A stretch of 64,000 nucleotides of DNA from a phage. Made by a program: the position numbers and the translations under genes. Positions 16,566-31,718 of the stretch are shown here, one piece after another. Location of the stretch: assembly GCA_021081985.1 (NCBI GenBank), contig GCA_021081985.1_3639.1; one strand, given 5' to 3'. The notes below the pieces were generated by a model. The model made no database searches. It had not been told where the DNA came from and was given only the letters and a program-made list of their open reading frames with translations. How positions within the stretch are numbered: the first letter of the stretch is position 1; every line of letters starts with the position of its first letter.

Positions 16566-17891
16566 TTAATATATAGGATCCCACGTCAAAGAATCTACCT
16601 CACGAACACATTTGCCAACAGGAAATTGCGGAACACCGTCATCGGTCCTTGCTTGGTATGTAAAAGTTATATACTTGCCGATAAGTTTTTTCATATTCTC
16701 TTGTGAGCGTTCTTCGTGTGTGCCTCTCATCTTACAGTTAAATTGTGTACCATCCTTCTCAGCACACAACAGGACACCTTCTCCATTCTTATCCTCAAAG
16801 GAATCAAGAACTCTGGCCTCACCATCCTGAAACAATTTCCACTTTTGAAGATCAGACGATCTTTGTCCAAACTCATACTTTCCGTGAAAGTTCCTTATTA
16901 CAACACCCTCATAACCTGCTTCCATAAACTCCTTGATGAGCATTTTAACACGATCCTCATCAGACACTATTGCTCCGTGCACTACTTTAATCAGGTTATA
17001 AGGCCATGTATACTCAGAGACTTTCTGTAAATTATTAAACCTACACTTGTCTGTGTCAGAAGACATCCATGGTGTGTCATCTTCCGAAGGTATATCGAAA
17101 ATATGATATTCTAAGTCTAAACTTGAATAACCACAATACTTATTAATATTTTTCTCTGGTTTCTTTGTGATAGGATGTTCTAACCCTTCGGAGTCTTTCC
17201 AAAACTCATCACCATTGTTAATTGCTTTTTCAAATCGCTTTATGTCTGATTGATAGTCTTTTTCTATCTCACATTCTATCTCTTCTGGTGTTCTCCATTT
17301 CTTAGCCAAAGAGACTATTTTCTGGAGACTTAACCCATGAATATACAACTCTCCATCAAACATTTTCAATCCTGTCTTTTTGGCTAGTTTAGACATCTGA
17401 TCAAGCAATTGGCCTTGTACAGGATATGTTTTATTGCCACGACTATTAAACACAGGCACGCCATCATCACCAACCAGAACAAGTGCTCTAACACCATCAA
17501 GTTTTGGTTGAACATGCAAAGGATACACTAAAGAACTTTTCCTTTTGATGGCATCATGTGCCAGCATTGGTGAGAAATCTTGGGTTTTTGTAAGATCATC
17601 CTTAGATACGCGATACCCAAGGCGTACTTGTTTTTCCCACTTAGATTTTGCCTCCAAAACAGCTTGTTCTGTATCAGTTGTCTCATTTTTCTTACCGATG
17701 TTTTTGGCAAAGCATTTTGTGCGTTTATACTGCATTTTACCGTTTTCTTTACCAAACTCAACAACAGTTTCTGATCCATCTGCCCACACATTCCACACTT
17801 GATATGTACCATCCCTGTTTAGGGCGTATAGTGTTGGAAGGTTATTTTCAAGCATTAAATACCTCGCTTGTGACAACAGGTTTTCCTTCAA
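16566..17891 (-). CDS. ATP-dependent DNA ligase
   Basis: Nucleotidyltransferase motif I KLDGVRAL (KxDGxR); 441 aa. Confidence 0.7.
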   Translation of the reverse strand: MKENLLSQARYLMLENNLPTLYALNRDGTYQVWNVWADGSETVVEFGKENGKMQYKRTKCFAKNIGKKNETTDTEQAVLEAKSKWEKQVRLGYRVSKDDLTKTQDFSPMLAHDAIKRKSSLVYPLHVQPKLDGVRALVLVGDDGVPVFNSRGNKTYPVQGQLLDQMSKLAKKTGLKMFDGELYIHGLSLQKIVSLAKKWRTPEEIECEIEKDYQSDIKRFEKAINNGDEFWKDSEGLEHPITKKPEKNINKYCGYSSLDLEYHIFDIPSEDDTPWMSSDTDKCRFNNLQKVSEYTWPYNLIKVVHGAIVSDEDRVKMLIKEFMEAGYEGVVIRNFHGKYEFGQRSSDLQKWKLFQDGEARVLDSFEDKNGEGVLLCAEKDGTQFNCKMRGTHEERSQENMKKLIGKYITFTYQARTDDGVPQFPVGKCVREVDSLTWDPIY

Positions 17892-18633
17892 GGTGATTTT
17901 CTACCAACTCAATAAGTTTTTGGTTGCTGAATGCTTCAACTGCTCCACAGCGCATTTGGTACACACCATATTTATCATACTGCTCTTGTTCAAAGTAATT
18001 GATCGCTGGGTTTATTACAACCAGTTTAATACCTCGTTTTGCGATTGCATGCAGCAATTCCCAGTTAAAGTCGATAACCTGATTAGAGCAGCCAACCAGA
18101 AGTACAAGATCTTGAGTATTCAAGTCATCAAGCATGGTAAACATGTCCTGATAAAGTGGTGCATTCTCACCGAAAAATACCACATTTGGCTTGCACCACC
18201 AGTAATCATCAGGGTCAACAACCGCATATCCGACATCAATCACACGTTTAGGAAACTCTTCACCATTCTGTACAACAAGCTCTTTGAGAAAACCATGTAC
18301 ATGGAGAATATCCTTCTTTTCAATGCCAGCACGTTCAAGCAGATCGTCAACGTTTGTTGTAAGATTACGTACTTGTCCAGGATAACGGTTATACCATTCT
18401 GCTACACGAAGATGTGCCATGTTGGGGTGCACAGTCTTCAATTCTTCACGGCGTTTGTTATAAAATTCGTGTGTTTTGTGGTAAAAATTACCACGAAATG
18501 CATGAATATTACATACTTCTTCAAGATCATATTCATCCCAAAGAGCTTTACCTGACGAAGTATCTGTACGGAATGTGCGAATACCGCTTTCTGTTGACAT
18601 ACCTGCACCACTAATCACAAGTAATCGACGCAT
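17848..18633 (-). CDS. Sir2-family (sirtuin-like) NAD-dependent protein
   Basis: GAGMSTESGIRTFR, TTNVDDL, HVHG, VVFFGE motifs; no CxxC...CxxC Zn ribbon seen. Confidence 0.65.
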   Translation of the reverse strand: MRRLLVISGAGMSTESGIRTFRTDTSSGKALWDEYDLEEVCNIHAFRGNFYHKTHEFYNKRREELKTVHPNMAHLRVAEWYNRYPGQVRNLTTNVDDLLERAGIEKKDILHVHGFLKELVVQNGEEFPKRVIDVGYAVVDPDDYWWCKPNVVFFGENAPLYQDMFTMLDDLNTQDLVLLVGCSNQVIDFNWELLHAIAKRGIKLVVINPAINYFEQEQYDKYGVYQMRCGAVEAFSNQKLIELVENHLEGKPVVTSEVFNA

Positions 18634-18641: not shown

Positions 18642-19049
18642 CTATTGTAATTTTAAAGAGTTACGTAAACGTGCTTCTTGACGGTCACGAATAAACTGCG
18701 GGACATCATGAATGCTTTCGTTACCATGATAATTTTCCACAACTACAGATGTTACATCATAGCAGTAGTTTTCTGCTAAGTCAAGATAAGGTTTCAACTC
18801 TTTCGCAGAAGTTGTTGTGTTTGAAACAATAATCTTTTCAACTTCATTCTGCATGTGGAGTTCTACTTTGTCACGACACCATTGATGAGCTTTGTGGATA
18901 TTTTCTTCTTTCCACTCATACACACCGTCTTCGGTGTAATGAAATTGGTCAGCTTCACACACAGGCCAACGACCATCATCAGACAACTCTTTAGCAAGAG
19001 TTGATTTTCCTGACCCAGAGACACCACGTAAAATAAATAACTTTTTCAT
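18642..19049 (-). CDS. P-loop polynucleotide-kinase-like protein
   Basis: MKKLFILRGVSGSGKSTLA Walker A; 135 aa. Confidence 0.5.
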   Translation of the reverse strand: MKKLFILRGVSGSGKSTLAKELSDDGRWPVCEADQFHYTEDGVYEWKEENIHKAHQWCRDKVELHMQNEVEKIIVSNTTTSAKELKPYLDLAENYCYDVTSVVVENYHGNESIHDVPQFIRDRQEARLRNSLKLQ

Positions 19050-19059: not shown

Positions 19060-19392
19060 TTAGTATTGGTGACGATAAAACTTTATACCTAAAGTGTTTT
19101 CGAAATATTCTCTCGCCAACATAAACTTGTTCACGGCAGATGGGTTAGAGCTATGTACGTGAATCTCTTTAAGATTCGTAAACTTACCATCATGAAGCTC
19201 ACGTTCAATATAGATGAAAGCATCGTAACCTTCCTCATCACCACCCAAATCATTATCAAAATGGATGGAATCAATGTCGCTATCACTCATAAATTTTAGT
19301 AATGAGTAGAAGCTAGAGAGATTCTTACACCATAAGGCATTAGGGTATCCATAATCTACTGGATTTCGCAGATCATCCAACCACAGTTTCAA
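19060..19392 (-). CDS. conserved hypothetical protein (MKLWLDDLRNP...FDNDLGG motif)
   Basis: 110-aa ORF between the kinase-like and ligase-like genes; family not assigned. Confidence 0.3.
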   Translation of the reverse strand: MKLWLDDLRNPVDYGYPNALWCKNLSSFYSLLKFMSDSDIDSIHFDNDLGGDEEGYDAFIYIERELHDGKFTNLKEIHVHSSNPSAVNKFMLAREYFENTLGIKFYRHQY

Positions 19393-20321
19393 ATTGTACC
19401 TCCGAAAAAATCCTCAATAATTTCACGACGGAATTGTTCATGCAAACATTCCCAATGTTCTTTAGAATAGTTATCACGCAAATAGTTTAAAAGGTTATAA
19501 TACTCTTCGTCAACTTTCTTCTTAGCTTCTTCTGGGTTTCCCCAAATCATATCCCACTTGTTCTTACCGCCACGCATCAAAAATTTCTTCGCCAAATAGT
19601 GTGGTGATTTTATCTTCAAGAGAAGATCTTGCTGTCCTGTAGCAGCACGTACAACAAACCCTTCATGTTTGCATTCTTTAGACATTTTCAGGATGTCTGA
19701 AAAGTGCATATTTATGTAAGTCTCTGGTCGTTTAAAACCGAACTCTTTTGCGATAAGATCCAGAGCTTTTTCACTAAGCATAGAAGTTAATTTGTCTTTA
19801 TGAAATCGAACACCAATCAAATACACACCTGCCTTTTCTGGTACAATGTGTGGGTCTGAAGGAGCGCAAATCTCAAAGATAAATGTTGTCTTTGGTTCTT
19901 CCACACATGATAACAACATTGGCAAATTAGTACATTCTTCCATGATCATACCTTTTGCAAGTTTTGCAAAATCGGAATCTAGAGTTCCTGTTGTTGAAAC
20001 AATTAGCTCACCATTGTATGAGCTTACTGCTGCCATGAAGCCATTAACTTTACGTGCTGCATTCACAACCATATCTTTTGGAAGATCAGTACCGTTCTCT
20101 AAATGATTGAAAATCTTGGTAAAAGGCCACACAACGATGTTGTCATCACTGTCCACAACCATACCACGGCAATCAAGTAAGCGACTGTCTTGATCCCACA
20201 AGTTTTCCCAAAAAACTTTGTTACTGTATTTCAAAACAGACAAACCTTTAAACTCACCACTGGTATAAGTCTTCTTTTTGACAAGGCCTTTTGATACTAA
20301 ATCTTCAACATTGAATTTCAT
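19389..20321 (-). CDS. RNA ligase-like nucleotidyltransferase (putative)
   Basis: KVNGFM motif I-like lysine nucleotidyltransferase signature; 310 aa. Confidence 0.45.
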   Translation of the reverse strand: MKFNVEDLVSKGLVKKKTYTSGEFKGLSVLKYSNKVFWENLWDQDSRLLDCRGMVVDSDDNIVVWPFTKIFNHLENGTDLPKDMVVNAARKVNGFMAAVSSYNGELIVSTTGTLDSDFAKLAKGMIMEECTNLPMLLSCVEEPKTTFIFEICAPSDPHIVPEKAGVYLIGVRFHKDKLTSMLSEKALDLIAKEFGFKRPETYINMHFSDILKMSKECKHEGFVVRAATGQQDLLLKIKSPHYLAKKFLMRGGKNKWDMIWGNPEEAKKKVDEEYYNLLNYLRDNYSKEHWECLHEQFRREIIEDFFGGTI

Positions 20322-20518
20322 TTGTCTTCACCGTCACTATTGTATGATTGTTTATTAAATGACTCAATTATACATGTTGATCGTCTTGCGTCAACAGATT
20401 GGCTTGTTAAATCTTTAGCAACAACTAGTTTTTCCACATCATCTTTTTTGATGGATCCGTAAGCACCAGAATCCATCATGAAGAATATTTTATCTTCTGT
20501 TATCTTGTGTATTTTCAT
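20318..20518 (-). CDS. hypothetical protein
   Basis: 66-aa ORF. Confidence 0.25.
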   Translation of the reverse strand: MKIHKITEDKIFFMMDSGAYGSIKKDDVEKLVVAKDLTSQSVDARRSTCIIESFNKQSYNSDGEDK

Positions 20519-20539: not shown

Positions 20540-21118
20540 TCAATGGCCATCAGCAGTGAAAACGTCTTTTTCCATACACATTTGGTATGCTTCTGGCAGA
20601 CCCAAAATTCTCCCATGTACATCCCAACCAACATCAAGAATCCGTCCTTTCGCACTGTAAGATCCGTGACTGTGCCCATGCAAGAACACAGACCCATAGT
20701 GAGATTTATTCCACGCGGCAAACGGGTAATGACTCATACAAATTTTTTGTTCATAATCGTTAAATTCGTAATAATCGCACACATCATGACCACGTTTTTT
20801 GAATGTTTTAATCGCATCAAAATTGTCATGATTACCTTTGACAAGGACGATATGCCCAACAAGTTCATCAAGAATTTCTTCAAGTCTTTTAATAACTTGC
20901 TTGCCACGACCAAAACAAAAATCACCAAGCACAAAAGTCACAGTATCGGCATCTGCGCCGTGGTTAAATTTCACTGTGAGGTCTTGGTTCATTTGTTCAA
21001 CGGTTTTGTACAAATCACCACGAAAACGTTTTGAACTCTCAAAGTTCAGGATGTTTTTATGCCAGTAATGTAAATCAGATGTTACACGGTATTTGGTTCC
21101 CATTTCTCTCTCCCTCAC
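20540..21118 (-). CDS. calcineurin-like metallophosphoesterase
   Basis: DLH, GDF, GNHD and GHSH metal-binding motifs in order. Confidence 0.7.
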   Translation of the reverse strand: MREREMGTKYRVTSDLHYWHKNILNFESSKRFRGDLYKTVEQMNQDLTVKFNHGADADTVTFVLGDFCFGRGKQVIKRLEEILDELVGHIVLVKGNHDNFDAIKTFKKRGHDVCDYYEFNDYEQKICMSHYPFAAWNKSHYGSVFLHGHSHGSYSAKGRILDVGWDVHGRILGLPEAYQMCMEKDVFTADGH

Positions 21119-21128: not shown

Positions 21129-21566
21129 TCACTGTCGCTCTAACAAATCTTCTGCTGGATAAGCATACAGCATGTATTCCCAACCACGATGGTAATGTCT
21201 GTGTTGCCAGTTGATTAATTTTAGACACACAATGTTCACCACGTTCCTGTCCCCATGGATAAAAACACAAGTCTCAAGGATTGACTTTCCAAACTCAACA
21301 TGACTGTCAAGATACAGTTTTGTGTTGTATCTTTTTTCAGCATCCAGCATGATCTGTTTCAAGGCCAGAAATGCCTCGCAACACACAGATTTTTCATCAG
21401 AAATCATTTTGATATTCAAGCATTCACCCCCACACAGGCAACCACGCAAATCGTGTCTGATCACCACAACACAATCGGTTTGAAACAAACCTGTTTGACA
21501 CACAACAGGCATCGTCGTAGTGTCATGCCTAAACACAGACAGATATGATACGACGAAGATCCCCAC
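21129..21566 (-). CDS. Cys/His-rich hypothetical protein (first gene of the minus-strand block)
   Basis: 145-aa ORF; several Cys and an HRHYH stretch. Confidence 0.3.
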   Translation of the reverse strand: MGIFVVSYLSVFRHDTTTMPVVCQTGLFQTDCVVVIRHDLRGCLCGGECLNIKMISDEKSVCCEAFLALKQIMLDAEKRYNTKLYLDSHVEFGKSILETCVFIHGDRNVVNIVCLKLINWQHRHYHRGWEYMLYAYPAEDLLERQ

Positions 21567-22122
21567 ACAGAGTCACATAGTGACTTGTGACAACCCGAAT
21601 CCATGATTGAGATAAACACACAGAGACAAACCTGTAGGGTTTGTTGATGTGGGTTTATCTCAGAATGGCTCATGAGGGTTAGATGATCACAAGCTATCAG
21701 CGCAGTGAGCATCTTACACACTCACGTATTGCCTGAAGAGTCTCATCGACTCATGCTTTCAGGCAAAACACTATGAACTCTATGATTCGAAATCATCGAA
21801 CCATACGATTCGACTCAATCGAATCATATCAACAAAAATATTTAAAATCAAGTCTTGACATTCTTCAAGACTTAATGTATTTTAAATAAATTTTATATAA
21901 TATATTATTATATATAATACGTAGTATTATATTATATTAAATTATATTATATAATTTATATTATATTAGATCATATTAAATAGATCATAGTATTATAATA
22001 CGTAGTATTATATTTAATAGATCTTATAAGTTAGTTTAATTTGATCAGTTAGTATTGTGTCCCCAAAACGGGGACATACCCATGTCCCTGAAATGGGGAC
22101 ATATGGGAGGGGTTGACATTGT
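21567..22122. promoter_or_regulatory. divergent intergenic control region (AT-rich repeats, palindromes, promoter-like boxes)
   Basis: 556 bp non-coding between opposed gene blocks; IR gagataaac..gtttatctc (about 21610-21662), IR tgcctgaa..ttcaggca (about 21731-21766), gattcga/cgaatcat repeats, IR aagtcttga..tcaagactt with TTGACA (21850-21873), AT-rich attatat repeats (21880-22050), paired GTCCC..GGGAC hairpins (22058-22102), TTGACA at 22113-22118. Confidence 0.45.
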
Positions 22123-22548
22123 GTGGGGTTATGGGTAGCATTCTCGGTGTTGGATTACACACCGGAGTTTGCCTTGAAATCTAATGTTGGGGGTTTCCAT
22201 GTAAATCCGAAAGCTGGGTCATACATCGCTGTCCCGACAGAGTGGGTTTTTGATGAACGGTTATCACCAAGCGATCTGCAAAGATTGATACGCTTGTTGT
22301 GGAGATACGAGTATTTCAAGAATCTGAACCCTCTGGGTGGGGAACTGGTATTCTTTCCGTCACAACAATCCTTGTGTGGCCTGTTGGGGTGGAATGAAAA
22401 CTCACGAACCAAAGTGTCTGAATTTCTGTCTCGGATGGAGAGCTTTGGTTATATCAGGCGTGTTAGATCAGGATTTCAGGATTCTGATGGTAACGTGAAA
22501 CCAAGAAATTATATTATCGTCAATCGTATCAGAGGGGATAAATCATGA
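22123..22548 (+). CDS. putative winged-helix DNA-binding protein (start uncertain)
   Basis: 141-aa ORF from GTG; LIRLLWRYEYF...GYIRRVR helix-rich segment; track start lies inside promoter-like sequence so a downstream TTG near 22174 may be the real start. Confidence 0.3.
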   Translation: MGLWVAFSVLDYTPEFALKSNVGGFHVNPKAGSYIAVPTEWVFDERLSPSDLQRLIRLLWRYEYFKNLNPLGGELVFFPSQQSLCGLLGWNENSRTKVSEFLSRMESFGYIRRVRSGFQDSDGNVKPRNYIIVNRIRGDKS

Positions 22549-23354
22549 ATATTCGTTTGAGTTTGAACAAGCTACATGTGCCAGTTGACCATTTCACATT
22601 TAGTGGTGGTGAGGAGCAGATTAAGATCGATATGCGTCATGTTCCGCATGGTTCGATAGGTTTTGTTGATATCTTCGCTAGACTCAAGAACTCACAGGAT
22701 GTGATGTGTTTGGCACTGCTTGTTGATGCAGTTAATCGTCTTGGCAATTTGGATGTTGGTGTGGAAAAGGTTTTACACCTGCCGTACATTCCGTATGCTC
22801 GACAAGACCGAGTTATGAACCCTGGAGAATCTCTGTCGGTGAAAGTCTTTGCCACAATGATTAACTCGCTTGGTTTCCACAAAGTCATCGTCGATGATCC
22901 ACACAGTGACGTATCCGCAGCACTGATTGATAACGTGAAAATTCGTTCTCAGACTGATTTGTTCTTGAACATGAATTTTGATTTTGATCTGCTTACGGAC
23001 GAATCGCTTGTGTTGGTTGCTCCAGATGCAGGTGCACGCAAGAAGACCCAGAAGGTTGCTGATACCTTGGAACTATCTGTGGTTGAAGCAGGTAAAATCC
23101 GTGATGTGGGAACAGGGGCAATCACAGGCACAACAGTGTTTGGTGATGTTGGTGGGAAGACATGCCTGATTGTCGATGATATCTGCGATGGTGGGTTTAC
23201 GTTTACAAACTTAGCTCAAGCCTTGAAAGCTGCTGGTGCAAAACGTGTTATTTTGTATGTTACGCATGGAATTTTCTCTCGTGGGAAAGAATTTATTCTC
23301 GACGGTGGTGTTGACGAAATTTATGCATACTACGACTGGACAGAAAATTTTTAA
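22545..23354 (+). CDS. ribose-phosphate pyrophosphokinase (PRPP synthetase) family protein
   Basis: LPYIPYARQDR, VLVAPDAGA and LIVDDICDGGFT motifs. Confidence 0.8.
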   Translation: MNIRLSLNKLHVPVDHFTFSGGEEQIKIDMRHVPHGSIGFVDIFARLKNSQDVMCLALLVDAVNRLGNLDVGVEKVLHLPYIPYARQDRVMNPGESLSVKVFATMINSLGFHKVIVDDPHSDVSAALIDNVKIRSQTDLFLNMNFDFDLLTDESLVLVAPDAGARKKTQKVADTLELSVVEAGKIRDVGTGAITGTTVFGDVGGKTCLIVDDICDGGFTFTNLAQALKAAGAKRVILYVTHGIFSRGKEFILDGGVDEIYAYYDWTENF

Positions 23355-23418
23355 GTTGGTATTGACAAAGATACGTTTTAGTGAAAAAATACGTTTTTAG
23401 GATTGGAGGGTTGAGATC

Positions 23419-25134
23419 ATGCTTCACAAAGAAAGTCCATTGCTGTTTGCAGATTTTTATAAACCAAGTCACATCTCGATGTACGACAAACGTTCACAGT
23501 TTGTTCAAGACAACATGACACCACGCAATGCGAAACACTTTGTACACTTTGCAGATGATGACCATCGTGTAATGTTTGCTGGTCTTCAGGGATTTATCAA
23601 GTGGTTCCTGATTGACATGTTTAATAATAATTTCTTTGCTTTACCGAAAGAAAAGGCGATTCAGGATTACAAAGAGATTTGTGATTTGAGCATTGGGAAG
23701 GATGCTGTTGAAACTTGGGGTTTTGAGAGATTGCATGATCTTGGATATCTCCCAATTGAAATTAGAGCTTTGCCTGAAGGAACTCTTGTTCCTGTTCAGG
23801 TTCCTATGTTCACGATTCAGAACACGCACCCTGATTTTTACTGGCTGCCAAACTTCCTTGAGAGCGTGATCTCCTCGGAGACTTGGAAGACAATTACCAC
23901 GGCAACGACTTTCTGGCAATATCGTAAACTATCAGAACTGTGGGCAAAGAAAACATGTGATAACAACGATCACGTTCCTTTCCAGAACCATTGTTTTGCA
24001 TACCGTGGTGAAGCTGGAACACATGACGCAGCACAGAGCGAATTTGGGCAACTGATTAGCTCAATGGGCACAGATACAATTCCAGCGATTGTTTACGCAA
24101 ATCGCTATTACAACATGAAAGGTCGCTTTGTTGCTGGGTCTATTCCCGCATCTGAGCATAGCGTAGCGACAACGAACATTGGTTTTATTGTTGAGCGTAT
24201 CCAGCAGGAAAATCCTGACATGTCGCTTGCTGAAGCACGTTTTCGTGCTGAAGTTGAGTTCTTAAAGCGTTATGCAACAGAGATTTTTCCGTCAGGCTAT
24301 GCTTCATACGTCGCAGACAGCTATGATTTTTGGGCAATCATTACACAAGCAGCCAAAATCCTGAAAGATGAGATTATGTCTCGTGATGGCAAGCTGGTCT
24401 TCCGACCGGACAGTGGGATCCCAGAGCACATCATTGCTGGCTATCGTGTGTGCTCTCAGGAAGAATGGGCAACGGGACAGTGCTGTGATATGGATGCTGT
24501 GCTGTTTAAAAATGGCAAATATGTCACTCTGTACGAGATGTCCAGAGACACTTCTTGGATGCGAGATTCGGAAGGCAACCTCGTAGATTGGAAATCTTTG
24601 ACAGGTGATGAATTTACAAATTATCTTACCAAAGAGGAGGTTAAGGGTGCTGTACAATGCTTGTGGGAAATCTTTGGTGGTAGTGTAAACTCTTTGGGTT
24701 ACAAAGTTCTTGATAGCCATGTTGGTTTAATCTACGGAGACTCTATCACAATCTCTCGTGCTAAAGAGATCTTTGAGCGCCTTGAAGAACGAGGCTTTGC
24801 TTCCAGCAACATTGTGTTTGGTGTAGGATCTTATACAACGCAATATACAACCCGTGATTCTCTTGGGATGGCTGTAAAAGCTACTGGTGCTGTGATTGAT
24901 GGCAGACAAGTAATGGTTGTAAAAGAGCCTAAGACTGATCTTGGGAAGAAATCTGCGAAAGGTTTTGTTAAAGTTATTCGTGGTGATGATGGTGAGTTGA
25001 AGCTGGTAGATAATCTTGGTATTAATCAGGTATCTGACCCTGACAACGAGCTTAGAACAGTTTTTGTTAATGGTAAGCTGCTTGTGGATGAGGATCTTGA
25101 AGAAATTCGTCAAAGAGCTTTGTCACAGCTTTAG
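23419..25134 (+). CDS. nicotinamide phosphoribosyltransferase (NAMPT/NadV) family protein
   Basis: 571 aa; N-terminal LLFADFYKPSHISMY and overall NAMPT-like pattern; GGAGGG RBS. Confidence 0.8.
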   Translation: MLHKESPLLFADFYKPSHISMYDKRSQFVQDNMTPRNAKHFVHFADDDHRVMFAGLQGFIKWFLIDMFNNNFFALPKEKAIQDYKEICDLSIGKDAVETWGFERLHDLGYLPIEIRALPEGTLVPVQVPMFTIQNTHPDFYWLPNFLESVISSETWKTITTATTFWQYRKLSELWAKKTCDNNDHVPFQNHCFAYRGEAGTHDAAQSEFGQLISSMGTDTIPAIVYANRYYNMKGRFVAGSIPASEHSVATTNIGFIVERIQQENPDMSLAEARFRAEVEFLKRYATEIFPSGYASYVADSYDFWAIITQAAKILKDEIMSRDGKLVFRPDSGIPEHIIAGYRVCSQEEWATGQCCDMDAVLFKNGKYVTLYEMSRDTSWMRDSEGNLVDWKSLTGDEFTNYLTKEEVKGAVQCLWEIFGGSVNSLGYKVLDSHVGLIYGDSITISRAKEIFERLEERGFASSNIVFGVGSYTTQYTTRDSLGMAVKATGAVIDGRQVMVVKEPKTDLGKKSAKGFVKVIRGDDGELKLVDNLGINQVSDPDNELRTVFVNGKLLVDEDLEEIRQRALSQL

Positions 25135-25146
25135 CAGCATAATCAT

Positions 25147-25172
25147 TCCCCTCCGCACGGAGGGGTTTTTCA
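25147..25172 (+). terminator. intrinsic terminator after the NAMPT-like gene
   Basis: CCCCTCCGcacGGAGGGG followed by TTTTT. Confidence 0.55.
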
Positions 25173-25188
25173 TTCCTAGGAGAGCGTT

Positions 25189-25395
25189 TTGAGAAATTTC
25201 GTAGTCAAGCACGACAGAAACCGTGCATCAGTCCACACAGACATGAAAAAAGCGTGGGAGCCAGATATCCTTGACGGACTAGAAGAACATTACATCGAAG
25301 TCGGTCTTTGCAAGGATGCCTCATGTGACCTTTCCCCTCATGAGATTGCAGTAGCAGAATACGAACGTGGTGTCAAGGCTTCTGGAATAGTTTAA
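25189..25395 (+). CDS. hypothetical protein
   Basis: 68-aa ORF. Confidence 0.3.
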   Translation: MRNFVVKHDRNRASVHTDMKKAWEPDILDGLEEHYIEVGLCKDASCDLSPHEIAVAEYERGVKASGIV

Positions 25396-25463
25396 TTGAC
25401 AAAAATAAACACCACTGATAAGATCTAATAACAAGATAAAAATAAAGTTAGTGGTGATTTGTT

Positions 25464-25712
25464 ATGTTTAAATTAAAAATGGTTCTTAAGTCTGATAACG
25501 GGGAGTACGTAGAACATGAGTCTTTTCATAAAACACATGATGATGCGCTTGAAGAAGCGGATGATGTCGCTTTTTCTACAACTGGTTTTGGAATTGAATC
25601 CTGGAAATATATTGCATCGTTCGGTGAAGAAGGCGGGTTATATTATTTCTACCCCATCGAAGGGATTAGTACAACAAAGTACGTTATCAGGATCCTTAGA
25701 ACAACCGTATAA
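25464..25712 (+). CDS. hypothetical protein
   Basis: 82-aa ORF; promoter-like TTGACA-17-TAAGAT at 25396-25424 upstream. Confidence 0.3.
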   Translation: MFKLKMVLKSDNGEYVEHESFHKTHDDALEEADDVAFSTTGFGIESWKYIASFGEEGGLYYFYPIEGISTTKYVIRILRTTV

Positions 25713-25995
25713 AAATCGTAAACAAAGACGTGCAGAAGCTGCAATGAAAAGATCACGGAGAAAAGTAAGATGACCAAAACGTATACTGAAGAGACGCATA
25801 AACAAGTTGAGTTGTTGCTTTGTAGGTTACAACAGTGTATTGACAGAGTTCGTATTTTACGTTTTGAGTTTGAAAATAATATCTCTTAATGTGAGGAATG
25901 TATGAGAAAAGGTATTGATTTTGAAAAAGAAGTTGGTTTCGGGGAAGGGTGTCATCAAGAAGAAAATTGGGATGTTTAAAATTTTAAAATATCTC

Positions 25996-26024
25996 TTGAC
26001 AATGTAGATCATACAGGATAACAT
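25996..26024 (+). promoter_or_regulatory. sigma70-like promoter (TTGACA-17-TAACAT) upstream of first tRNA
   Basis: cTTGACAatgtagatcatacaggaTAACAT about 22 nt before the tRNA 5' end. Confidence 0.4.
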
Positions 26025-26045
26025 CATCTCATACCAAAGAGATAC

Positions 26046-26121
26046 GGCCCCTTAGCTCAGTGGTTAGAGCAGGTGACTCATAATCGCTTGGTCGCTGGTT
26101 AAAGTCCAGCAGGGGCCACCA
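26046..26121 (+). tRNA. tRNA-Met (anticodon CAT; could also be Ile2 or initiator)
   Basis: Manual cloverleaf: acceptor GGCCCCT/AGGGGCC, D-arm GCTC..GAGC, anticodon loop cTCATaa, T-arm GCTGG..CCAGC, encoded CCA. Confidence 0.75.
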
Positions 26122-26173
26122 AATGTGGCACACGAAATAAACTAGGTTTATTGTTTTCGGAGGAGAAAACTTA

Positions 26174-26497
26174 ATGGCTAAGAAACAGTCTGCTAAAAAG
26201 GTATCAGCTATCGAGGCGATCAAGCAACCTTTTCAGTTTGAATCAAAATCCACGCAGACACATTCTGCACCGCACGATGTGCGTCTTGGTGGCAAAACGC
26301 AAACTGTAGCAGTTCTGAAAAAACGCAAAGATGAAGACGGTAATACTGAAATGTATTATGAATCTGTGTCTCGTGTCATTGGTGGTGAAGTGATTTCTGC
26401 TTCCTATCGTATCCGTACTGGGAAAACAAAGCGTGAACGAGAAGTGAAACAGAAAACAAGCACTCCTGTAGGAAACGTTAAGAAAACTAAAAAATAA
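26174..26497 (+). CDS. hypothetical basic protein
   Basis: 107 aa, Lys-rich; GGAGGAG RBS. Confidence 0.35.
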   Translation: MAKKQSAKKVSAIEAIKQPFQFESKSTQTHSAPHDVRLGGKTQTVAVLKKRKDEDGNTEMYYESVSRVIGGEVISASYRIRTGKTKREREVKQKTSTPVGNVKKTKK

Positions 26498-26573
26498 TTT
26501 ACTGACGAGAGTGCCACCGTGAGCCAGCGTCATTAAACAAAGGGAATCACGGACATTCAGGAGGGTTGAGATT

Positions 26574-26765
26574 ATGATAGGATCTTTGCTTAAGATTGCA
26601 AGCGATGTAACAACAACGGCTGTTGAAGTGACTGCTGCGGTAACAACTCCGTTTGTTGATTTAGCATCAGATGCTATAGCAGCAGCAGACGAGATGATTT
26701 TGTCACCGACATCTGATCTTGTCCAAGATCTTTGTGATTCTATAAAAGATGCTGTAAAAGATTAA
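26574..26765 (+). CDS. hypothetical small acidic protein
   Basis: 63 aa; AGGAGGG RBS. Confidence 0.3.
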   Translation: MIGSLLKIASDVTTTAVEVTAAVTTPFVDLASDAIAAADEMILSPTSDLVQDLCDSIKDAVKD

Positions 26766-26773
26766 AATTTTTC

Positions 26774-26802
26774 TTGACATAGTTTTTGTTTTTCTGTATA
26801 GT
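26774..26802 (+). promoter_or_regulatory. sigma70-like promoter (TTGACA-17-TATAGT)
   Basis: TTGACAtagtttttgtttttctgTATAGT upstream of the ORF at 26839. Confidence 0.5.
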
Positions 26803-26838
26803 TACTTTATCAAAGCTAATTTACATAGGAGAGATTGA

Positions 26839-27486
26839 ATGTCTACTAAGATTTCCGTAACTCGTGCACTTGCTTCTATCTCTAAGATTGAAGATAAGAT
26901 CAATAAGCGCATTTATAACCTTGAATGTATTAAGATTGCAAAAGGAACTGAGAATAATTGTAAGATTCCTGGTTATATCGGCTCTGTTGATGATTTTAAG
27001 AAATCTGCGATCAACGACTATCAAAGTCTGCAAGACCTCTTGGCAGTTCGCGATGAACTGAAGGCAAAAATTGTCAAGTCTAATGCTGAGACAATTGTCA
27101 AAATTGGTAAGGTGTCTATGACAGTTGCTGAGGCAATCGAACGCAAACGGACGATTTGCTTTAAACAAGAGTTGTTAAACAAACTTTGTGCACAGCGTGC
27201 TTCTGCACAGCTTCTTCTGGCAAAAGAAGAAAAATCTCTGGAAGATAAACTTGAAAATGCCAGAGCGCCATATATCCAACGTGATAAAGCGCCAGATGCA
27301 GAGCAGATTAAGACTGTGGAAGCTCCCATTCGAATGATGAACACACCATCGGTTGTGGATCCTCTTGAACTGGCTTCTAAGATTCGTTCTCTTGAAGAAG
27401 AGATTGAAGATTTCTTGTCTAACGTTGATTTTGCGTTGTCTGAGTCAAACGCTAAGACAGAAATTGAGATTGAGCACTCTCTCTAA
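26839..27486 (+). CDS. hypothetical coiled-coil protein
   Basis: 215 aa; heptad-like charged stretches; AGGAGAG RBS. Confidence 0.4.
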   Translation: MSTKISVTRALASISKIEDKINKRIYNLECIKIAKGTENNCKIPGYIGSVDDFKKSAINDYQSLQDLLAVRDELKAKIVKSNAETIVKIGKVSMTVAEAIERKRTICFKQELLNKLCAQRASAQLLLAKEEKSLEDKLENARAPYIQRDKAPDAEQIKTVEAPIRMMNTPSVVDPLELASKIRSLEEEIEDFLSNVDFALSESNAKTEIEIEHSL

Positions 27487-27520
27487 AAGGCTCTGATAAT
27501 ATCATTATCGTTCCTTTGTT

Positions 27521-27733
27521 TTGAAATTTAAAACATTGCTTTTGATTAACGAAGTTTACATCATCTTGCCTCCTGGGGATTGGAGGTTAAATATTCCCCA
27601 CCATGTATCGTATATGTATGAGGATAATACAGAACATAGATGCAGCGAGGCACACGAAGATGCTTTGTTGTTTCCACTAAGTAAAAGTTCATACAATAAA
27701 GGTCAATGGTTAAATGTGAAAGATGAAACTTGA
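27521..27733 (+). CDS. hypothetical protein
   Basis: 70-aa ORF. Confidence 0.25.
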   Translation: MKFKTLLLINEVYIILPPGDWRLNIPHHVSYMYEDNTEHRCSEAHEDALLFPLSKSSYNKGQWLNVKDET

Positions 27734-27851
27734 AAGTTGACTCTTGAAAGATAAAATTTCGTTTATCATCTGAAATCCTTGACACAGGTTATGGCTCACA
27801 AGATATGGTCTGTAAAGCCTCAAGGCTGTTAATCGGAAGCAATGTCTTATT

Positions 27852-27926
27852 GCTCGTATAGCTCAACGGTAGAGCACCTGCCTTGTAAGCAGGGGGTTGC
27901 AGGTTCGAAACCTGCTGCGAGCACCA
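27852..27926 (+). tRNA. tRNA-Thr (anticodon TGT)
   Basis: Acceptor GCTCGTA/TGCGAGC, D-arm GCTC..GAGC, loop cTTGTaa, T-arm GCAGG-TTCGAAA-CCTGC, CCA encoded. Confidence 0.75.
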
Positions 27927-27928
27927 AT

Positions 27929-28025
27929 GCTGGGTAAGCCCTTTGGCAAGGGCGAGGATTTATAATCCTGAAAATAGACGGGCTAGCCGTTGAATACATA
28001 GGTGGTTCGATTCCATCACCCAGCC
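27929..28025 (+). ncRNA. atypical tRNA-like element (97 nt; intact acceptor, D- and T-arms, aberrant anticodon region)
   Basis: Acceptor GCTGGGT/ACCCAGC, D-arm GCCC..GGGC, T-arm GGTGG-TTCGATT-CCATC, but about 46 nt between D- and T-arms with two hairpins and no encoded CCA. Confidence 0.3.
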
Positions 28026-28226
28026 ACAAGTTTGTTTTATAGTGTATTAGCTTATATTATTCGATATAAATGCCTGATCAGCATTTGTTGTGAATGAGGC
28101 ATACAATGCGTGAGAAAGCTATCGGTGCGCAACGTTGATTTCAAACGTAGTCATGCTCGTAGAGCACCAACTGTGGAAGTTGGAGGGTGGTTGAGTAACC
28201 ATACACTATAAAGCATTCTTTAAAAT

Positions 28227-28311
28227 GGGCGGTGTCCCCACACAAGTCTTCTAAACTTGTACTTAAAAAGTGGGAAGGAAGTGAGAGGTTCGATTCCTCC
28301 ACCGTCTACCA
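28227..28311 (+). ncRNA. atypical tRNA-like element (T-arm, acceptor and CTTCTAA anticodon-like hairpin but no D-arm)
   Basis: GGTTCGATTCC T-loop, acceptor GGGCGGT/ACCGTCT plus ACCA, hairpin CAAGT-cttctaa-ACTTG; does not fold as a canonical cloverleaf by hand. Confidence 0.3.
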
Positions 28312-28387
28312 GATTAACCCCAACTTGAGAATCGTCAGCGCGGCTCGTAAGACCCACTCTATAGGTTCTCTACCTGGGGTGCTTATT

Positions 28388-28464
28388 GCACGGTTGCCGG
28401 AATTTGGTTACGGGTCTGTCTGCAAAACGGATATATGTCGGTTCAAGTCCGACACCGTGCTCCA
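28388..28464 (+). tRNA. tRNA-Cys (anticodon GCA)
   Basis: Acceptor GCACGGT/ACCGTGC, loop cTGCAaa, T-arm GTCGG-TTCAAGT-CCGAC, CCA encoded. Confidence 0.7.
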
Positions 28465-28501
28465 AACTTTCAATTTCTTGGCAAATATGTTAAAATACCA
28501 C

Positions 28502-28530
28502 TTGACAGATATGTTTTTATTTGATAATAT
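28502..28530 (+). promoter_or_regulatory. sigma70-like promoter (TTGACA-17-TAATAT)
   Basis: TTGACAgatatgtttttatttgaTAATAT upstream of ATG 28551. Confidence 0.45.
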
Positions 28531-28550
28531 CATTAAGTGGGGTTTTTAAA

Positions 28551-28898
28551 ATGGCTACTAAGCAGCTTACAAAACGTAGAAGAGGAAAAGGTCGTCCTCT
28601 GAAAGAGGAATCTAATGCAATTCAGTTAGAGAAAAATATCCTAGATTTGAAAACGAATCTGATTGCAATGATTCCTGAAGCTCATCAGGTTCTTAGGGAT
28701 TTGATGAAGAATGTGAATACAAAAGACAATATCAGAGAAAATATCGCTCGTTATGTTATTGAGAAAGGTGAGCAGATGCTTTCTGATTACTTTGATGAGG
28801 AAAACGAAGAGTTACTCGAAAAAGATAACTCAGAAAAAGCGCCTATTAAGGCAGCCAAACCATTCTCGACGGATATTGTTCAATTCAAACAAGGTTAA
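28551..28898 (+). CDS. hypothetical protein (start at internal ATG of track ORF 28521..28898)
   Basis: MATKQLTKRRRGKGRP...; promoter-like element immediately upstream. Confidence 0.35.
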   Translation: MATKQLTKRRRGKGRPLKEESNAIQLEKNILDLKTNLIAMIPEAHQVLRDLMKNVNTKDNIRENIARYVIEKGEQMLSDYFDEENEELLEKDNSEKAPIKAAKPFSTDIVQFKQG

Positions 28899-28899
28899 T

Positions 28900-28989
28900 G
28901 TGTCGTTAGACCGTAGGGGTAGCGGGGGAGACTGTAAATCTCCTGTCTCGAAAGGGACTCGGGTAGTTCGACTCTATCACGGCACACCA
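28900..28989 (+). tRNA. tRNA-Tyr (anticodon GTA), long variable arm
   Basis: Acceptor GTGTCGT/ACGGCAC, loop cTGTAaa, variable-arm hairpin GTCTC-gaaa-GGGAC, T-arm GGTAG-TTCGACT-CTATC, CCA encoded. Confidence 0.7.
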
Positions 28990-29057
28990 ACTAAATCTGT
29001 ACTGGCTTTGATGTGTGACGATACCCTCCAATCGTGGTTGTTGGGTCAGTACAGTTT

Positions 29058-29133
29058 GGGAGTGTAGATCAGTTAGTAGATCGCTCGACCGATAATCGAG
29101 AGGACGTAGGGGCAGAGCCTACCACTCCCACCA
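29058..29133 (+). tRNA. tRNA-Ile-like (anticodon GAT) with non-canonical T-loop and C33; possibly degenerate
   Basis: Acceptor GGGAGTG/CACTCCC, D-arm GATC..GATC, loop ccGATaa, T-arm GTAGG-GGCAGAG-CCTAC. Confidence 0.4.
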
Positions 29134-29138
29134 AATAT

Positions 29139-29213
29139 GCATCCATAGTTTAATTGGGAAAACTACAGCCTTCCAAGCTGAAGTCGAGGGTTCGATGCCC
29201 TCTGGATGCTCCA
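29139..29213 (+). tRNA. tRNA-Gly (anticodon TCC)
   Basis: Acceptor GCATCCA/TGGATGC, D-arm GTTT..AAAC, loop cTTCCaa, T-arm GAGGG-TTCGATG-CCCTC, CCA encoded. Confidence 0.65.
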
Positions 29214-29338
29214 GTTAAAAGATGTCAATGAAATCCGCTTGGGTCAACTGAAGACCGTAACAAATTCCATGGGGTTGTGTTTGCGGTCCAACCCTAGACA
29301 TCTTCTATCTTTAGTAGAAGGCTTTAATACGGACGAGT

Positions 29339-29569
29339 ATGATGGTTTCTAAATTAATCATAACAAGGCATCATAATGCTAAAGAAATAGAGATTGTGAA
29401 TGCTGCTGGCACTCTTGTGCTAAAAGTTGGTAAAGACTGTCCTTTTGAATTGTGCCAGAAGGAACTTTTAAGTTTGTGCGGTTTCAGGTTTAAACAGATT
29501 ATCTTTGAAAATGCTTTTCAATATTCAGACTTAAACCAGTACATTATATCTAGGCTTGATCCTGCATGA
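29339..29569 (+). CDS. hypothetical protein embedded in tRNA array
   Basis: 76-aa ORF. Confidence 0.3.
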   Translation: MMVSKLIITRHHNAKEIEIVNAAGTLVLKVGKDCPFELCQKELLSLCGFRFKQIIFENAFQYSDLNQYIISRLDPA

Positions 29570-30123
29570 GATACTTGAAATATTTATCTTGGATCCTGTT
29601 AGCACCTCTTGATCCAATTATGTCGGCTCTCTGTGTTATTCTGGCTCCTTTTGTTGTTCCGTTCTATAATGAGAAGACAGGGCATCTACCCTATATTTTC
29701 AGGTGGATGGAAACATATGATAATCCTATAGACGGTGACAGAGGACACATAGAGAGATGGGAAGAAGTCCGTAAAATAGGAAGTTTTGGTGTTTACCTAC
29801 AACGAGTTGCTTGGTTGTGGAGAAATAAAGCCTACAATTTTTCCTATCACGTACTTGGACGTGAAATCGCATCTGTGACAAAGTGGAAAGGAAACATCCA
29901 TGTAAGCTCTGATGTGGAGGATAATCAACAAGGCTATTTGTTGATGTGGAATGACAATGCGTGGGGTGTATTCGCGTTTGTCCCGTCTTTTAGATTGTTT
30001 GGAAAACAATTTTACTGGCGAATTTATGTCGGTTGGAAACTGAAGAGTGTGGTTCCTGAAGACAGAGCTTTTTCAAGAGAGAGGGTGATGTTGGCATTTT
30101 TCATAAGTCCTTTCCGAAAATAG
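29566..30123 (+). CDS. hypothetical protein (hydrophobic N-terminus, Trp-rich) embedded in tRNA array
   Basis: 185-aa ORF, ATGA overlap with upstream ORF. Confidence 0.4.
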   Translation: MRYLKYLSWILLAPLDPIMSALCVILAPFVVPFYNEKTGHLPYIFRWMETYDNPIDGDRGHIERWEEVRKIGSFGVYLQRVAWLWRNKAYNFSYHVLGREIASVTKWKGNIHVSSDVEDNQQGYLLMWNDNAWGVFAFVPSFRLFGKQFYWRIYVGWKLKSVVPEDRAFSRERVMLAFFISPFRK

Positions 30124-30129
30124 TTTTTA

Positions 30130-30211
30130 ATGAGAGTAGCGTAACTTCACTGGGTGAAGGCTGGCCTCCAAAACCAGTGACTAAGAGGTTCGATTCCTCA
30201 CTCTCGTGCCA
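30130..30211 (+). tRNA. tRNA-like gene, possible tRNA-Trp (anticodon CCA), irregular D-region
   Basis: Acceptor ATGAGAG/CTCTCGT, loop cTCCAaa, T-loop TTCGATT, CCA encoded; D-region forms a tight 6-bp hairpin instead of a normal D-arm. Confidence 0.35.
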
Positions 30212-30212
30212 A

Positions 30213-30288
30213 AGGGGATTAGCATAGTGGCCTAATGCAACGGGCTTTGACCCCGTGATCGGTTGTTCGAATCAACCATCCCCTGCCA
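30213..30288 (+). tRNA. tRNA-Gln (anticodon TTG)
   Basis: Acceptor AGGGGAT/ATCCCCT, D-arm GCAT..ATGC, loop cTTTGac, T-arm GGTTG-TTCGAAT-CAACC, CCA. Confidence 0.75.
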
Positions 30289-30297
30289 AGTTAAAAC

Positions 30298-30387
30298 GGA
30301 GAAGCAAATCGATTGGCGACGAAACCACATTGGAAATGTGCTGACTGGTAAAACGGCTTGAGAGTTCGATTCTCTCCTTCTCCACCA
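30298..30387 (+). tRNA. tRNA-Ser (anticodon GGA), type II
   Basis: Acceptor GGAGAAG/CTTCTCC, loop tTGGAaa, T-arm GAGAG-TTCGATT-CTCTC, CCA; variable arm pairs weakly. Confidence 0.5.
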
Positions 30388-30401
30388 GTTTTTAAGGATT
30401 T

Positions 30402-31145: not shown

Positions 31146-31147
31146 TT

Positions 31148-31241
31148 GGAAGATTAACCCTAATTTGGTAAGGGGTCTCCCTGCTAAGGAGATAGTAACC
31201 CAGAAATGGGTGTGCCAGTTCAAGTCTGGCATCTTCCTCCA
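31148..31241 (+). tRNA. tRNA-Ser (anticodon GCT), type II
   Basis: Acceptor GGAAGAT/ATCTTCC, loop cTGCTaa, variable-arm hairpin ACCCA-gaaa-TGGGT, T-arm GCCAG-TTCAAGT-CTGGC, CCA. Confidence 0.65.
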
Positions 31242-31709: not shown

Positions 31710-31718
31710 AAATATTCA

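Follow-up and report, generated by a model that had tools for sequence, protein, structure and literature searches.

A Prs-family and Nampt-family gene pair in a Vequintavirinae-like phage genome is very probably a NARP1 NAD+ reconstitution module

The window analysed here is a stretch of 64,000 nucleotides of phage DNA (GCA_021081985.1, contig GCA_021081985.1_3639.1). Two intact open reading frames (ORFs) are adjacent on its plus strand, in a phage-type genome whose context is Vequintavirinae-like. The first (22545..23354) encodes a Prs-family protein of 269 aa, named adps from its Pfam and PHROG matches, its position in a neighbor-joining (NJ) tree and its class-discriminating alignment columns. 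The second (23419..25134) encodes a Nampt-family protein of 571 aa with an adenine selectivity clamp, named namat from its matches to solved structures, its SCH motif and its catalytic residues. As the earlier note had reported, the genes are neighbors and the pair ends in a terminator, which is common to both; the gap between the genes is 64 nt. This intrinsic terminator (25148..25170, plus strand) begins 14 nt past the namat stop and consists of the strong hairpin CCCCTCC-GCAC-GGAGGGG (25148-25165; a G+C-rich stem of 7 bp and a loop of 4 nt) followed by a T5 run, with a folding energy of -14.3 kcal/mol (z=-2.78). Shine-Dalgarno sites are present ahead of the adps ATG (AGGGGA) and 9 nt 5' of the namat ATG (GGAGG). 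No convincing plus-strand terminator was found between the two genes, and a weak one is localized at 24779, inside namat. The promoter scan detected a sigma-70-like TTGACA-17-AAAAAT within the 64-nt gap, in a scanned region that gave 14 promoter-like matches for 12.8 expected from shuffled sequence, i.e. no enrichment. Because of this sigma-70-like sequence, co-transcription of adps and namat is plausible, not proven.

Contrary to the earlier note, the pair is not at the head of the plus-strand block, since an HTH-like ORF of 141 aa (22123..22548, plus strand) comes first, directly 5' of adps; the TGA that ends this ORF and the ATG of adps share bases (ATGA). This ORF matches phrog_8453 (E=6e-53) and, weakly, HTH_Crp_2 and the replication-initiator family phrog_270. 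The PHROG and tblastn alignments begin at residues 15-32, and translation therefore probably starts downstream of 22123. The ORF is probably co-transcribed with adps-namat and is no defined component of NARP1. Homologues were detected in 74 phage records, every one from phages of Enterobacterales hosts, and they are located directly 5' of Adps in KB57, AV124, KP13-16 and Hena1, the records for which Adps coordinates were available. No homologue was found 5' of the characterized operons of Bas63 and SPbetaL1, and the comparison with PVP-SE1 gp097 gave no similarity. We have consequently rejected the ORF as a conserved partner of NARP1; its restriction to phages of Enterobacterales and its absence at the Bas63 and SPbetaL1 loci point to lineage synteny. 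Further 5', two palindromic sites of 21 nt (22058-22078 and 22083-22103, plus strand; repeat family D2, inverted repeat I10) precede a promoter-like TTGACA-17-TAGCAT found by the promoter scan (22113-22141, plus strand). The palindromes and this sequence are candidates, unproven, for the operator and the promoter of the plus-strand block.

The Pfam and PHROG family matches of both proteins of the pair are far above chance. The 269-aa protein matches the Pfam families Pribosyltran_N, Pribosyltran and Pribosyl_synth, and phrog_619 at E=2e-92. An NJ tree was obtained from 24 sequences, 6 of them Prs (E. coli and 5 actinobacterial) and 18 of the Adps type, including the characterized Adps of Bas63 and SPbetaL1. 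The Prs and Adps sequences were separated in 300/300 bootstraps, and the phylogenetic placement that the earlier note had proposed as a check groups the 269-aa protein with the characterized Adps, not with the cellular Prs. Within the Adps clade, where support is low, it is found with the proteins of Av-05 and PVP-SE1. All the class-discriminating columns of the alignment (20/20) are Adps-like; they include the missing N-terminal strand and C-terminal helix of Prs, the motif DPHS where Prs has DLHA, and DDICDGG where Prs has DDxIDTGG. The residue K184 aligns with the essential K162 of the SPbetaL1 Adps (the K162A substitution abolishes activity). The other catalytic residues of the Prs type are invariant (R86, D88, H120, D161, R186, D211 and D212). 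Among the NCBIfam models, only the broad subfamily model TIGR01251 was passed (143 bits); the next best score was 119 bits with NF002320 (cut-off 297), and no Prs equivalog gave more than 102 bits for cut-offs of 296-536. The characterized Adps of Bas63 and SPbetaL1 likewise fall far under all Prs equivalog cut-offs. The protein is thus set apart from the cellular Prs both by these scores and by its lack of the N- and C-terminal elements. Its identity is only 31-38% with characterized Adps and 27% with E. coli Prs, and for this reason the placement relies on the tree and the signature columns.

The 571-aa protein matches Pfam NAPRTase (1.6e-28) and phrog_448 (1e-194). Its best matches among solved structures are those of the SPbetaL1 Namat (9W5X/9W5W, E=2e-124), and human NAMPT is recovered at ~1e-48. 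The catalytic core is invariant in alignment A1 (H247, R329, D331, F193, R196, D219, D12 and Y14); in the SPbetaL1 Namat this core comprises F189, R192, D215, R306, D308, the catalytic His and D13'/Y15'. Similarity scores alone were rejected as a way of separating Namat from Nampt. PDB 9KE8, devoid of aromatic clamp residues, still scores E=4e-107 (a literature search on this entry found nothing relevant). The NCBIfam "nicotinate phosphoribosyltransferase" equivalog NF006629 is passed by the 571-aa protein (475 bits, cut-off 405), and it cannot discriminate the two enzymes because the Bas63 Namat passes it too. The published clamp helix of Namat, GS-X-Phi-X-Phi-X-Phi-TRD, requires positions 3 and 7 to be aromatic, position 5 being "most often" aromatic (PMC12774641). 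The corresponding SCH motif is here G470-S-Y472-T-T-Q-Y476-T-T-R479-D480 (GSYTTQYTTRD), in which Y472 and Y476 supply the aromatics of positions 3 and 7, and position 5 is a Thr, not an aromatic residue. Nmnat-associated phage Nampts and the Xcc Nampt display GGGLLQ or GGALLQ at the clamp position and have no aromatic motif. In Namat, the clamp loop (SCL) provides a residue that stacks on adenine, either an Arg at the third position or, when a Lys or Tyr is third, the fourth residue. The SCL of the 571-aa protein, N37-A-K39-H40-F41, is of the Lys-third type, as in Bas63 (S-D-K-W), with a His as fourth residue. The auxiliary stacking residue would be His40 or Phe41, both candidates, compared with an Arg in SPbetaL1 and a Trp in Bas63. 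Two insertions of ~21 and ~66 aa distinguish the protein from the crystallized SPbetaL1 Namat; in the Bas63 Namat, both of these sites carry insertions too. Many entries of Table S2 of Osterman et al. are cut or are ORF fragments; this table was therefore set aside as a basis for a Namat tree and served for labels and motif comparison only.

Taken as a whole, the sequence features indicate that the pair is very probably NARP1, a system already known and published, in which Adps and Namat rebuild NAD+ from ADP-ribose and nicotinamide against NAD+-depleting immunity. The Adps/Namat reconstitution proposed by the earlier note is supported by the 300/300 Adps clade, by the clamp motif and by the Av-05 orthologues listed in the NARP1 tables. 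The pair, which in its view could not be distinguished by eye from ordinary Prs and NadV, is distinguished once sequence tools are applied, as the tree, the columns and the clamp do separate them. Moreover, according to published data, 97% of Adps-clade genes have an adjacent Namat, and bacterial prs almost never do.

In an ordinary salvage route, a true PRPP synthetase and a true Nampt/NadV would produce NMN, to be converted into NAD+ by the host NadR or PncC. The annotations of Pfam, PHROG, NCBIfam and GenBank all name both enzymes in this way, the 571-aa protein passes NF006629, and Namat enzymes keep a residual PRPP-dependent synthesis of NMN in vitro. However, NF006629 is passed by the Bas63 Namat as well, the tree places the 269-aa protein with Adps and this protein has no Prs terminal elements, and the 571-aa protein carries the Namat clamp motif. 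Furthermore, the homologue from SPbetaL1 converted ADPR and ATP to ADPR-PP but yielded nothing when assayed as a Prs, Bas63 still countered defense in a pncC nadR double mutant, and no match to an NMN adenylyltransferase family was found among the ~40 ORFs of the window that were scanned. Ordinary salvage is, on this evidence, extremely improbable.

For the NARP1 reading, we infer the chemistry and the anti-defense phenotype of the pair from the homologues of Bas63, FADO and SPbetaL1. The NADase of a host defense system (for example SIR2-HerA, DSR1/2, type I Thoeris or SEFIR) would cleave NAD+ to nicotinamide and ADP-ribose. With ATP, the 269-aa Adps is predicted by homology to add a pyrophosphate to the terminal ribose of this ADP-ribose and so to form ADPR-PP. 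The 571-aa Namat would then exchange the pyrophosphate for nicotinamide and yield NAD+ directly, its adenine clamp presumably conferring a preference for ADPR-PP over PRPP. The two reactions (ADPR + ATP to ADPR-PP; ADPR-PP + nicotinamide to NAD+) have been demonstrated with the SPbetaL1 proteins and in Bas63-infected cells, and rescue from NAD+-depleting defense has been demonstrated for Bas63, FADO and SBSphiJ+NARP1.

The same chemistry could also serve NAD+ housekeeping, in which case the pair would mainly recycle what is released by NAD+-consuming enzymes that the phage itself encodes. A Sir2-family ORF (17848-18633, minus strand; PF02146 at E=6e-26, with the motifs GAGxS, TNVDD and HG) is indeed encoded 3.9 kb from the pair, and sirtuin chemistry frees nicotinamide and an ADP-ribose derivative. 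Against this, Sir2 homologues occur in ~1000 phage records, many of 106-125 kb that are not among the Adps matches listed, and there is no annotated Sir2 at the characterized Bas63 and SPbetaL1 loci that were fetched. In addition, ADPR-PP was seen in Bas63 only with the host defense system present, according to published data, and the product of a deacetylase is O-acetyl-ADPR, which nothing marks as an Adps substrate. A housekeeping function is thus very unlikely.

In the Namat subfamily of Avunavirus and related Pectobacterium phages, the clamp departs from that of the characterized enzymes, with a K-H-F clamp loop, a Thr at clamp position 5 and an insertion of ~66 aa, and the operon is translationally coupled to an HTH-like ORF sitting 3' of two palindromic sites. 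One may imagine that this variant is transcriptionally regulated or that it takes another ADP-ribose-derived donor, for example products of the Sir2 that the phage itself encodes; we consider such a specialization very improbable.

The NARP1 assignment implies no new biology, and its value lies mainly in annotation. The names PRPP synthetase and Nampt persist in public records, Pfam, PHROGs and NCBIfam, and it is the combination of Adps-specific columns, Namat clamp motif and gene adjacency that identifies the two genes as a NARP1 counter-defense module. For phage therapy and host-range prediction, the phage is expected to be resistant to SIR2-HerA, DSR1/2, type I Thoeris and SEFIR. It is not expected to resist aRES, because it is devoid of the ADPR-1P phosphatase Adpp (following the logic of 10.64898/2026.01.28.702374).

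Adpp, a Macro-domain protein, belongs to the related system NARP1-AP (Adps-Adpp-Namat) of Vibrio phage Gary (10.64898/2026.01.28.702374), which has the core Adps and Namat in common with the present pair. Among the ORFs flanking the pair, no Macro-domain phosphatase was found within two genes on either side (Pfam E<=0.1), and therefore the pair corresponds to core NARP1 and not to NARP1-AP. A metallophosphoesterase (20540-21118, minus strand) was rejected as an Adpp, being calcineurin-like, on the opposite strand and within an RNA-ligase cluster. NARP2, which is composed of Nampt and Nmnat (Vibrio phage KVP40 type), also restores NAD+ through a Nampt-family enzyme. However, the NARP2-type Nampts examined (phiAS5 and D480) differ by a short SCL and by GGGLLQ where Namat has its aromatic clamp, are just 26-31% identical to the 571-aa protein, whose clamp motif is of the Namat type, and are associated with an Nmnat, not with a Prs-like gene. 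E. coli Prs (class I ribose-phosphate pyrophosphokinase, PDB 4S2U) belongs to the same fold family as the 269-aa protein, the RQDR motif, catalytic His, K-x-R loop and DD motifs being common to both. At 27% identity, the phage protein nevertheless differs by the absence of the first ~15-20 residues and the C-terminal ~45 residues of Prs, by DPHS instead of DLHA-QIQGFF, and by DGGxTF instead of DTGGT in the ribose-5-phosphate loop.

Among the characterized systems, the NARP1 of the lytic E. coli myovirus Bas63 (JohannRWettstein, genes 79-80; Osterman et al., 10.1101/2024.02.11.579819) has the same order, adps then namat. The Prs/Adps split does not separate the two Adps, and both Namat are long (593 aa in Bas63, 571 aa here), share the two insertion sites and have a Lys-third SCL and SCH aromatics at positions 3 and 7. 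The identity is only 38% for Adps and 43% for Namat. The fourth residue of the SCL is a His here and a Trp in Bas63, SCH position 5 is a Thr here and a Tyr in Bas63, and the Adps loop reads DDICDGG-F-TF here and DDICDGG-R-TF in Bas63. The translationally coupled HTH-like ORF is a further difference, and Bas63 is a Felixounavirus whereas the present phage is Vequintavirinae-like (Avunavirus-like).

With the NARP1 of Bacillus phage SPbetaL1 (Adps WIT26982, Namat WIT26983; 9W5X/9W5W; PMC12774641), the identity is 31% for Adps and 46% for Namat. The catalytic K162 of its Adps corresponds to K184, and R306, D215, F189 and D13/Y15 of its Namat to R329, D219, F193 and D12/Y14, respectively. A clamp helix of the form GS-aromatic-x-x-x-aromatic-x-TRD is present in both. 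On the other hand, the SPbetaL1 SCL stacks through Arg40 and is 5 residues shorter than here, and its crystal structure is without the insertions of ~21 and ~66 aa.

The orthologues of the pair in Escherichia phage Av-05 are gp017 and gp016 (KM190144_00031 and KM190144_00030), with 92.6% (Adps) and 98% (Namat) aa identity. The DNA is ~96% identical over 21556-35143, with an identical three-ORF arrangement and terminator region; the minus-strand block found here to the left of 21556 does not adjoin this region in the record of Av-05. Although GenBank still names the Av-05 proteins Prs and Nampt, KM190144_00031 is included in Table S1 of Osterman et al. as a Prs/Adps homologue with a Namat within 10 genes, and the Namat orthologue is labelled "Adps-associated" in their Table S2.

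The Prs-like ORF (22545-23354, plus strand, 269 aa) and the Nampt-like ORF (23419-25134, plus strand, 571 aa) are both intact, and the two-gene pair described in the earlier note was recovered together with the terminator at its end. The 269-aa protein matches the Pfam families Pribosyltran_N, Pribosyltran and Pribosyl_synth, as well as phrog_619 "ribose-phosphate pyrophosphokinase" (E=2e-92). The 571-aa protein matches the Pfam family NAPRTase (E=1.6e-28) and phrog_448 "nicotinamide phosphoribosyl transferase" (E=1e-194). Both genes have a Shine-Dalgarno sequence (AGGGGA 5' of 22545; GGAGG 9 nt 5' of 23419), and the hairpin CCCCTCC-GCAC-GGAGGGG followed by TTTTT is found 14 nt past the stop of the second gene (-14.3 kcal/mol, z=-2.8 against shuffles). 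The promoter-like sequence TTGACA-17-AAAAAT inside the 64-nt intergenic gap carries little weight either way, because promoter-like matches in the region are not more frequent than in shuffled sequence.

The pair had also been placed at the head of the plus-strand block. This position has to be corrected, since a 141-aa HTH-like ORF (22123-22548, plus strand) comes earlier, its stop overlapping the start of the Prs-like gene (ATGA); the pair therefore represents the second and third genes of the block. This ORF matches phrog_8453 and, weakly, HTH_Crp_2 and a replication-initiator PHROG. A homologue is present in 74 phage records, and every one of these phages has an Enterobacterales host; several of the homologues are localized directly 5' of Adps, the Prs-like enzyme of the NAD+ reconstitution pathway NARP1; none is present 5' of the characterised NARP1 operons of phages Bas63 and SPbetaL1. 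We regard this ORF as a case of lineage synteny, possibly a regulator, rather than as part of NARP1. A strand switch and a GC-skew sign change near 22 kb are found immediately to the left of the pair. Within the intergenic region, a stretch of ~170 nt (21880-22050) is extremely AT-rich and built of degenerate TATATTATA-type repeats in which GATC sites occur. Two 21-nt palindromes, TGTCCCCAAAACGGGGACATA and TGTCCCTGAAATGGGGACATA (22058-22078 and 22083-22103, 25 nt apart), stand immediately 5' of a TTGACA -35 box at 22113, which is followed by the HTH-like ORF. The region 21880-22141, which coincides with the GC-skew sign change, may represent an origin or, alternatively, a divergent promoter together with an operator.

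The Prs-like/Nampt-like operon of Bas63 counters SIR2-HerA (Osterman et al., 10.1101/2024.02.11.579819). In the same study, the SPbetaL1 Prs-like enzyme (Adps) converts ADP-ribose (ADPR) and ATP to the pyrophosphate ADPR-PP; in the Prs test it yielded no product. The Nampt-like enzyme (Namat) makes NAD+ from ADPR-PP and nicotinamide, preferring ADPR-PP over PRPP; the mutants Adps K162A and Namat R306G are inactive. Adps forms a phage-specific clade with Namat nearby in 97% of members, and the pathway is present in 859 phage genomes (10.1101/2024.02.11.579819).

An alignment of 24 sequences was realized with the window protein, its homologue from the related Escherichia phage Av-05, the Adps of Bas63 (MZ501086) and SPbetaL1, 14 further Prs/Adps homologues from Table S1 of that study (13 from phages and one bacterial; Namat nearby in 13 of them) and six Prs (E. 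coli and five actinobacterial). In the neighbour-joining tree (264 columns), the Prs, a small sample, are separated from all other sequences in 300/300 bootstraps. The window protein clusters with Av-05 and PVP-SE1 with 100% support, within an Adps clade whose internal support is low. At the columns discriminating Prs from Adps, defined without the window, Av-05 and PVP-SE1 sequences, the window protein is Adps-like in 20 of 20, so that tree and columns both place it on the Adps side. Among these columns are the absence of ~15-20 residues at the N-terminus of Prs and of ~45 at its C-terminus, DPHS where Prs have DLHA, V instead of the Q of Prs QIQGFF, G in the K-x-R-D-x-x-T-G loop, and DGG instead of DTG in the ribose-5-phosphate loop. 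The catalytic set of the window protein is complete: R86, D88, H120, D161, R186, D211 and D212 are invariant, and K184 occupies the position of SPbetaL1 K162 and E. coli K194. Among NCBIfam models, only the broad subfamily TIGR01251 is reached (143 bits; 138 for Bas63 Adps and 106 for SPbetaL1 Adps), and for all three proteins every Prs equivalog cut-off is far above the score.

For the 571-aa protein, the best solved-structure match is SPbetaL1 Namat (E=2e-124), against 2.5e-52 for Xcc Nampt and ~1e-48 for human NAMPT. It was aligned with the Namats of Av-05, Bas63 and SPbetaL1 and with two T4-like phage Nampts (phiAS5 and D480, relatives of a Table S2 entry labelled "Nmnat-associated"). The residues D12, Y14, F193, R196, D219, H247, R329, D331, G440-D441 and R479-D480 constitute an invariant catalytic core. 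The selectivity clamp was defined from the SPbetaL1 Namat structures 9W5X/9W5W (Lan et al., PMC12774641): it includes a helix of motif GS-X-Phi-X-Phi-X-Phi-TRD, where positions 3 and 7 are adenine-stacking aromatics, and a variable loop (SCL) providing a further stacking residue. The window helix, G470-S-Y-T-T-Q-Y-T-T-R-D480, has a Tyr both at position 3 and at position 7, matching the aromatics of GSFTYQYNTRD in SPbetaL1 and GSYTYQYMTRD in Bas63, whereas the Nmnat-associated Nampts show GGGLLQKCDRD and Xcc Nampt GGALLQKVDRD. The loop N-A-K39-H40-F41 is of the Lys-third type like S-D-K-W of Bas63 (PMC12774641), but its fourth residue is His instead of Trp. The K-H-F loop and GSYTTQY recur in the Namats that Table S2 labels "Adps-associated" from Pectobacterium phages CB7 and phiTE; the DU_PP phages combine K-H-F with GSFTTQF. 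Relative to SPbetaL1, two stretches are inserted in the window Namat, one of ~21 aa (around 258-278) and one of ~66 aa (around 341-408); both sites also carry insertions in Bas63 Namat (593 aa), an enzyme validated by experiment.

Namat and Nampt are separated neither by similarity scores nor by the NCBIfam equivalog NF006629, which is passed by the window protein and Bas63 Namat alike; the discriminators are the clamp motif and the linkage to Adps. The unpublished structure PDB 9KE8/9KEO, annotated "nicotinamide phosphoribosyltransferase", matches the window Namat with E=4e-107 and carries a clamp helix, GAQTYQRNTRD, in which neither position 3 nor position 7 is aromatic; this illustrates again that Namat and Nampt cannot be separated by overall similarity. 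In Pectobacterium phages CB7, phiTE and DU_PP_I/IV, the closest Namat relatives are divided into two ORFs either side of another gene. The break point is the site of the first insertion of the window protein (around residue 280), pointing to an intron or a homing-endonuclease site. The "Prs" entry of Shigella phage Ag3 reads as an Adps N-terminus joined to the C-terminal half of a Namat (compare phrog_12872), either a genuine fusion or an artefact of assembly or annotation.

A Sir2-family protein (17848-18633, minus strand, 261 aa; PF02146, E=6e-26) is encoded 3.9 kb from the pair. It displays the motifs GAGMS, TNVDD and HVHG, with no obvious CxxC zinc module, and has homologues in ~1000 phage records, including phages of Escherichia, Salmonella, Klebsiella and Vibrio. 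An NAD+ consumer stands beside an NAD+ rebuilder, and a minor alternative is that the pair recycles the products of the phage's own Sir2, which is compatible with NAD+ reconstitution as the main explanation. The minus strand also carries an AAA_33 kinase (18642-19049), a cREC_REC "cyclic-phosphate processing receiver" (19060-19392), an Rnl1-type RNA ligase (19389-20321), a small ORF (20318-20518) and a calcineurin-like phosphoesterase (20540-21118). This set looks like an RNA-repair cassette, which may counter anticodon nucleases; if Sir2 and NARP1 are added, candidate counter-defence genes seem to be clustered around the strand switch. Directly 3' of the operon, 14 tRNA genes (26046-32377, plus strand; Met, Thr, Cys, Tyr, Gly, Gln, three Ser, Lys, Asn, Pro, Leu and Phe) are interspersed with small ORFs. 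Further left on the minus strand, the ribonucleotide reductase large subunit (1930-4653, 907 aa) has a sub-threshold Intein_splicing match within its barrel domain (residues 465-587), which may be an intein or an intein remnant. A 628-aa ORF (5456-7342, minus strand), far longer than a normal ThyX, has a partial ThyX (Thy1) match (residues 346-485) as its sole Pfam match.

The segment 21556-35143 is ~96% identical to Av-05 (Vequintavirinae, Avunavirus), and the related E. coli phages 18-1-2, 24-2-1 and TH18 match at ~95%. In the Av-05 record, the minus-strand block found left of 21556 does not adjoin this segment, and a ~750-bp segment (30396-31144), missing from the otherwise collinear Av-05, carries a DUF7217 ORF (30402-31145, 247 aa) between tRNA genes.

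The Adps clade, the catalytic residues and the clamp motif GSYTTQYTTRD, with aromatics at positions 3 and 7 as in the characterised Namats, support the NAD+ reconstitution reading of the earlier note. Judged by all the sequence-level defining features tested, the stacking residue of the loop aside, the module is a member of NARP1, and we infer its enzymology and phenotype. In NARP1-AP, an extended form of the pathway, the operon also encodes a Macro-domain ADPR-1P phosphatase (10.64898/2026.01.28.702374); no Macro domain was detected in the ORFs flanking the pair (Pfam, E<=0.1), which therefore indicates core NARP1, and by the logic of that paper the pair alone would not be expected to overcome aRES. 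No match to an NMN adenylyltransferase family was found among ~40 window ORFs scanned, which argues against NARP2 (Nampt with Nmnat). The value of the assignment lies in a corrected annotation and in a prediction of the defences that this phage should escape. The module itself is already known through its near-identical Av-05 orthologue (gp017, 92.6% identity for Adps; gp016, 98% for Namat), catalogued in the supplementary tables of the discovery paper as KM190144_00031, "Namat within 10 genes: Yes", among Prs/Adps homologues and as KM190144_00030, "Adps-associated", among Namat homologues (10.1101/2024.02.11.579819).
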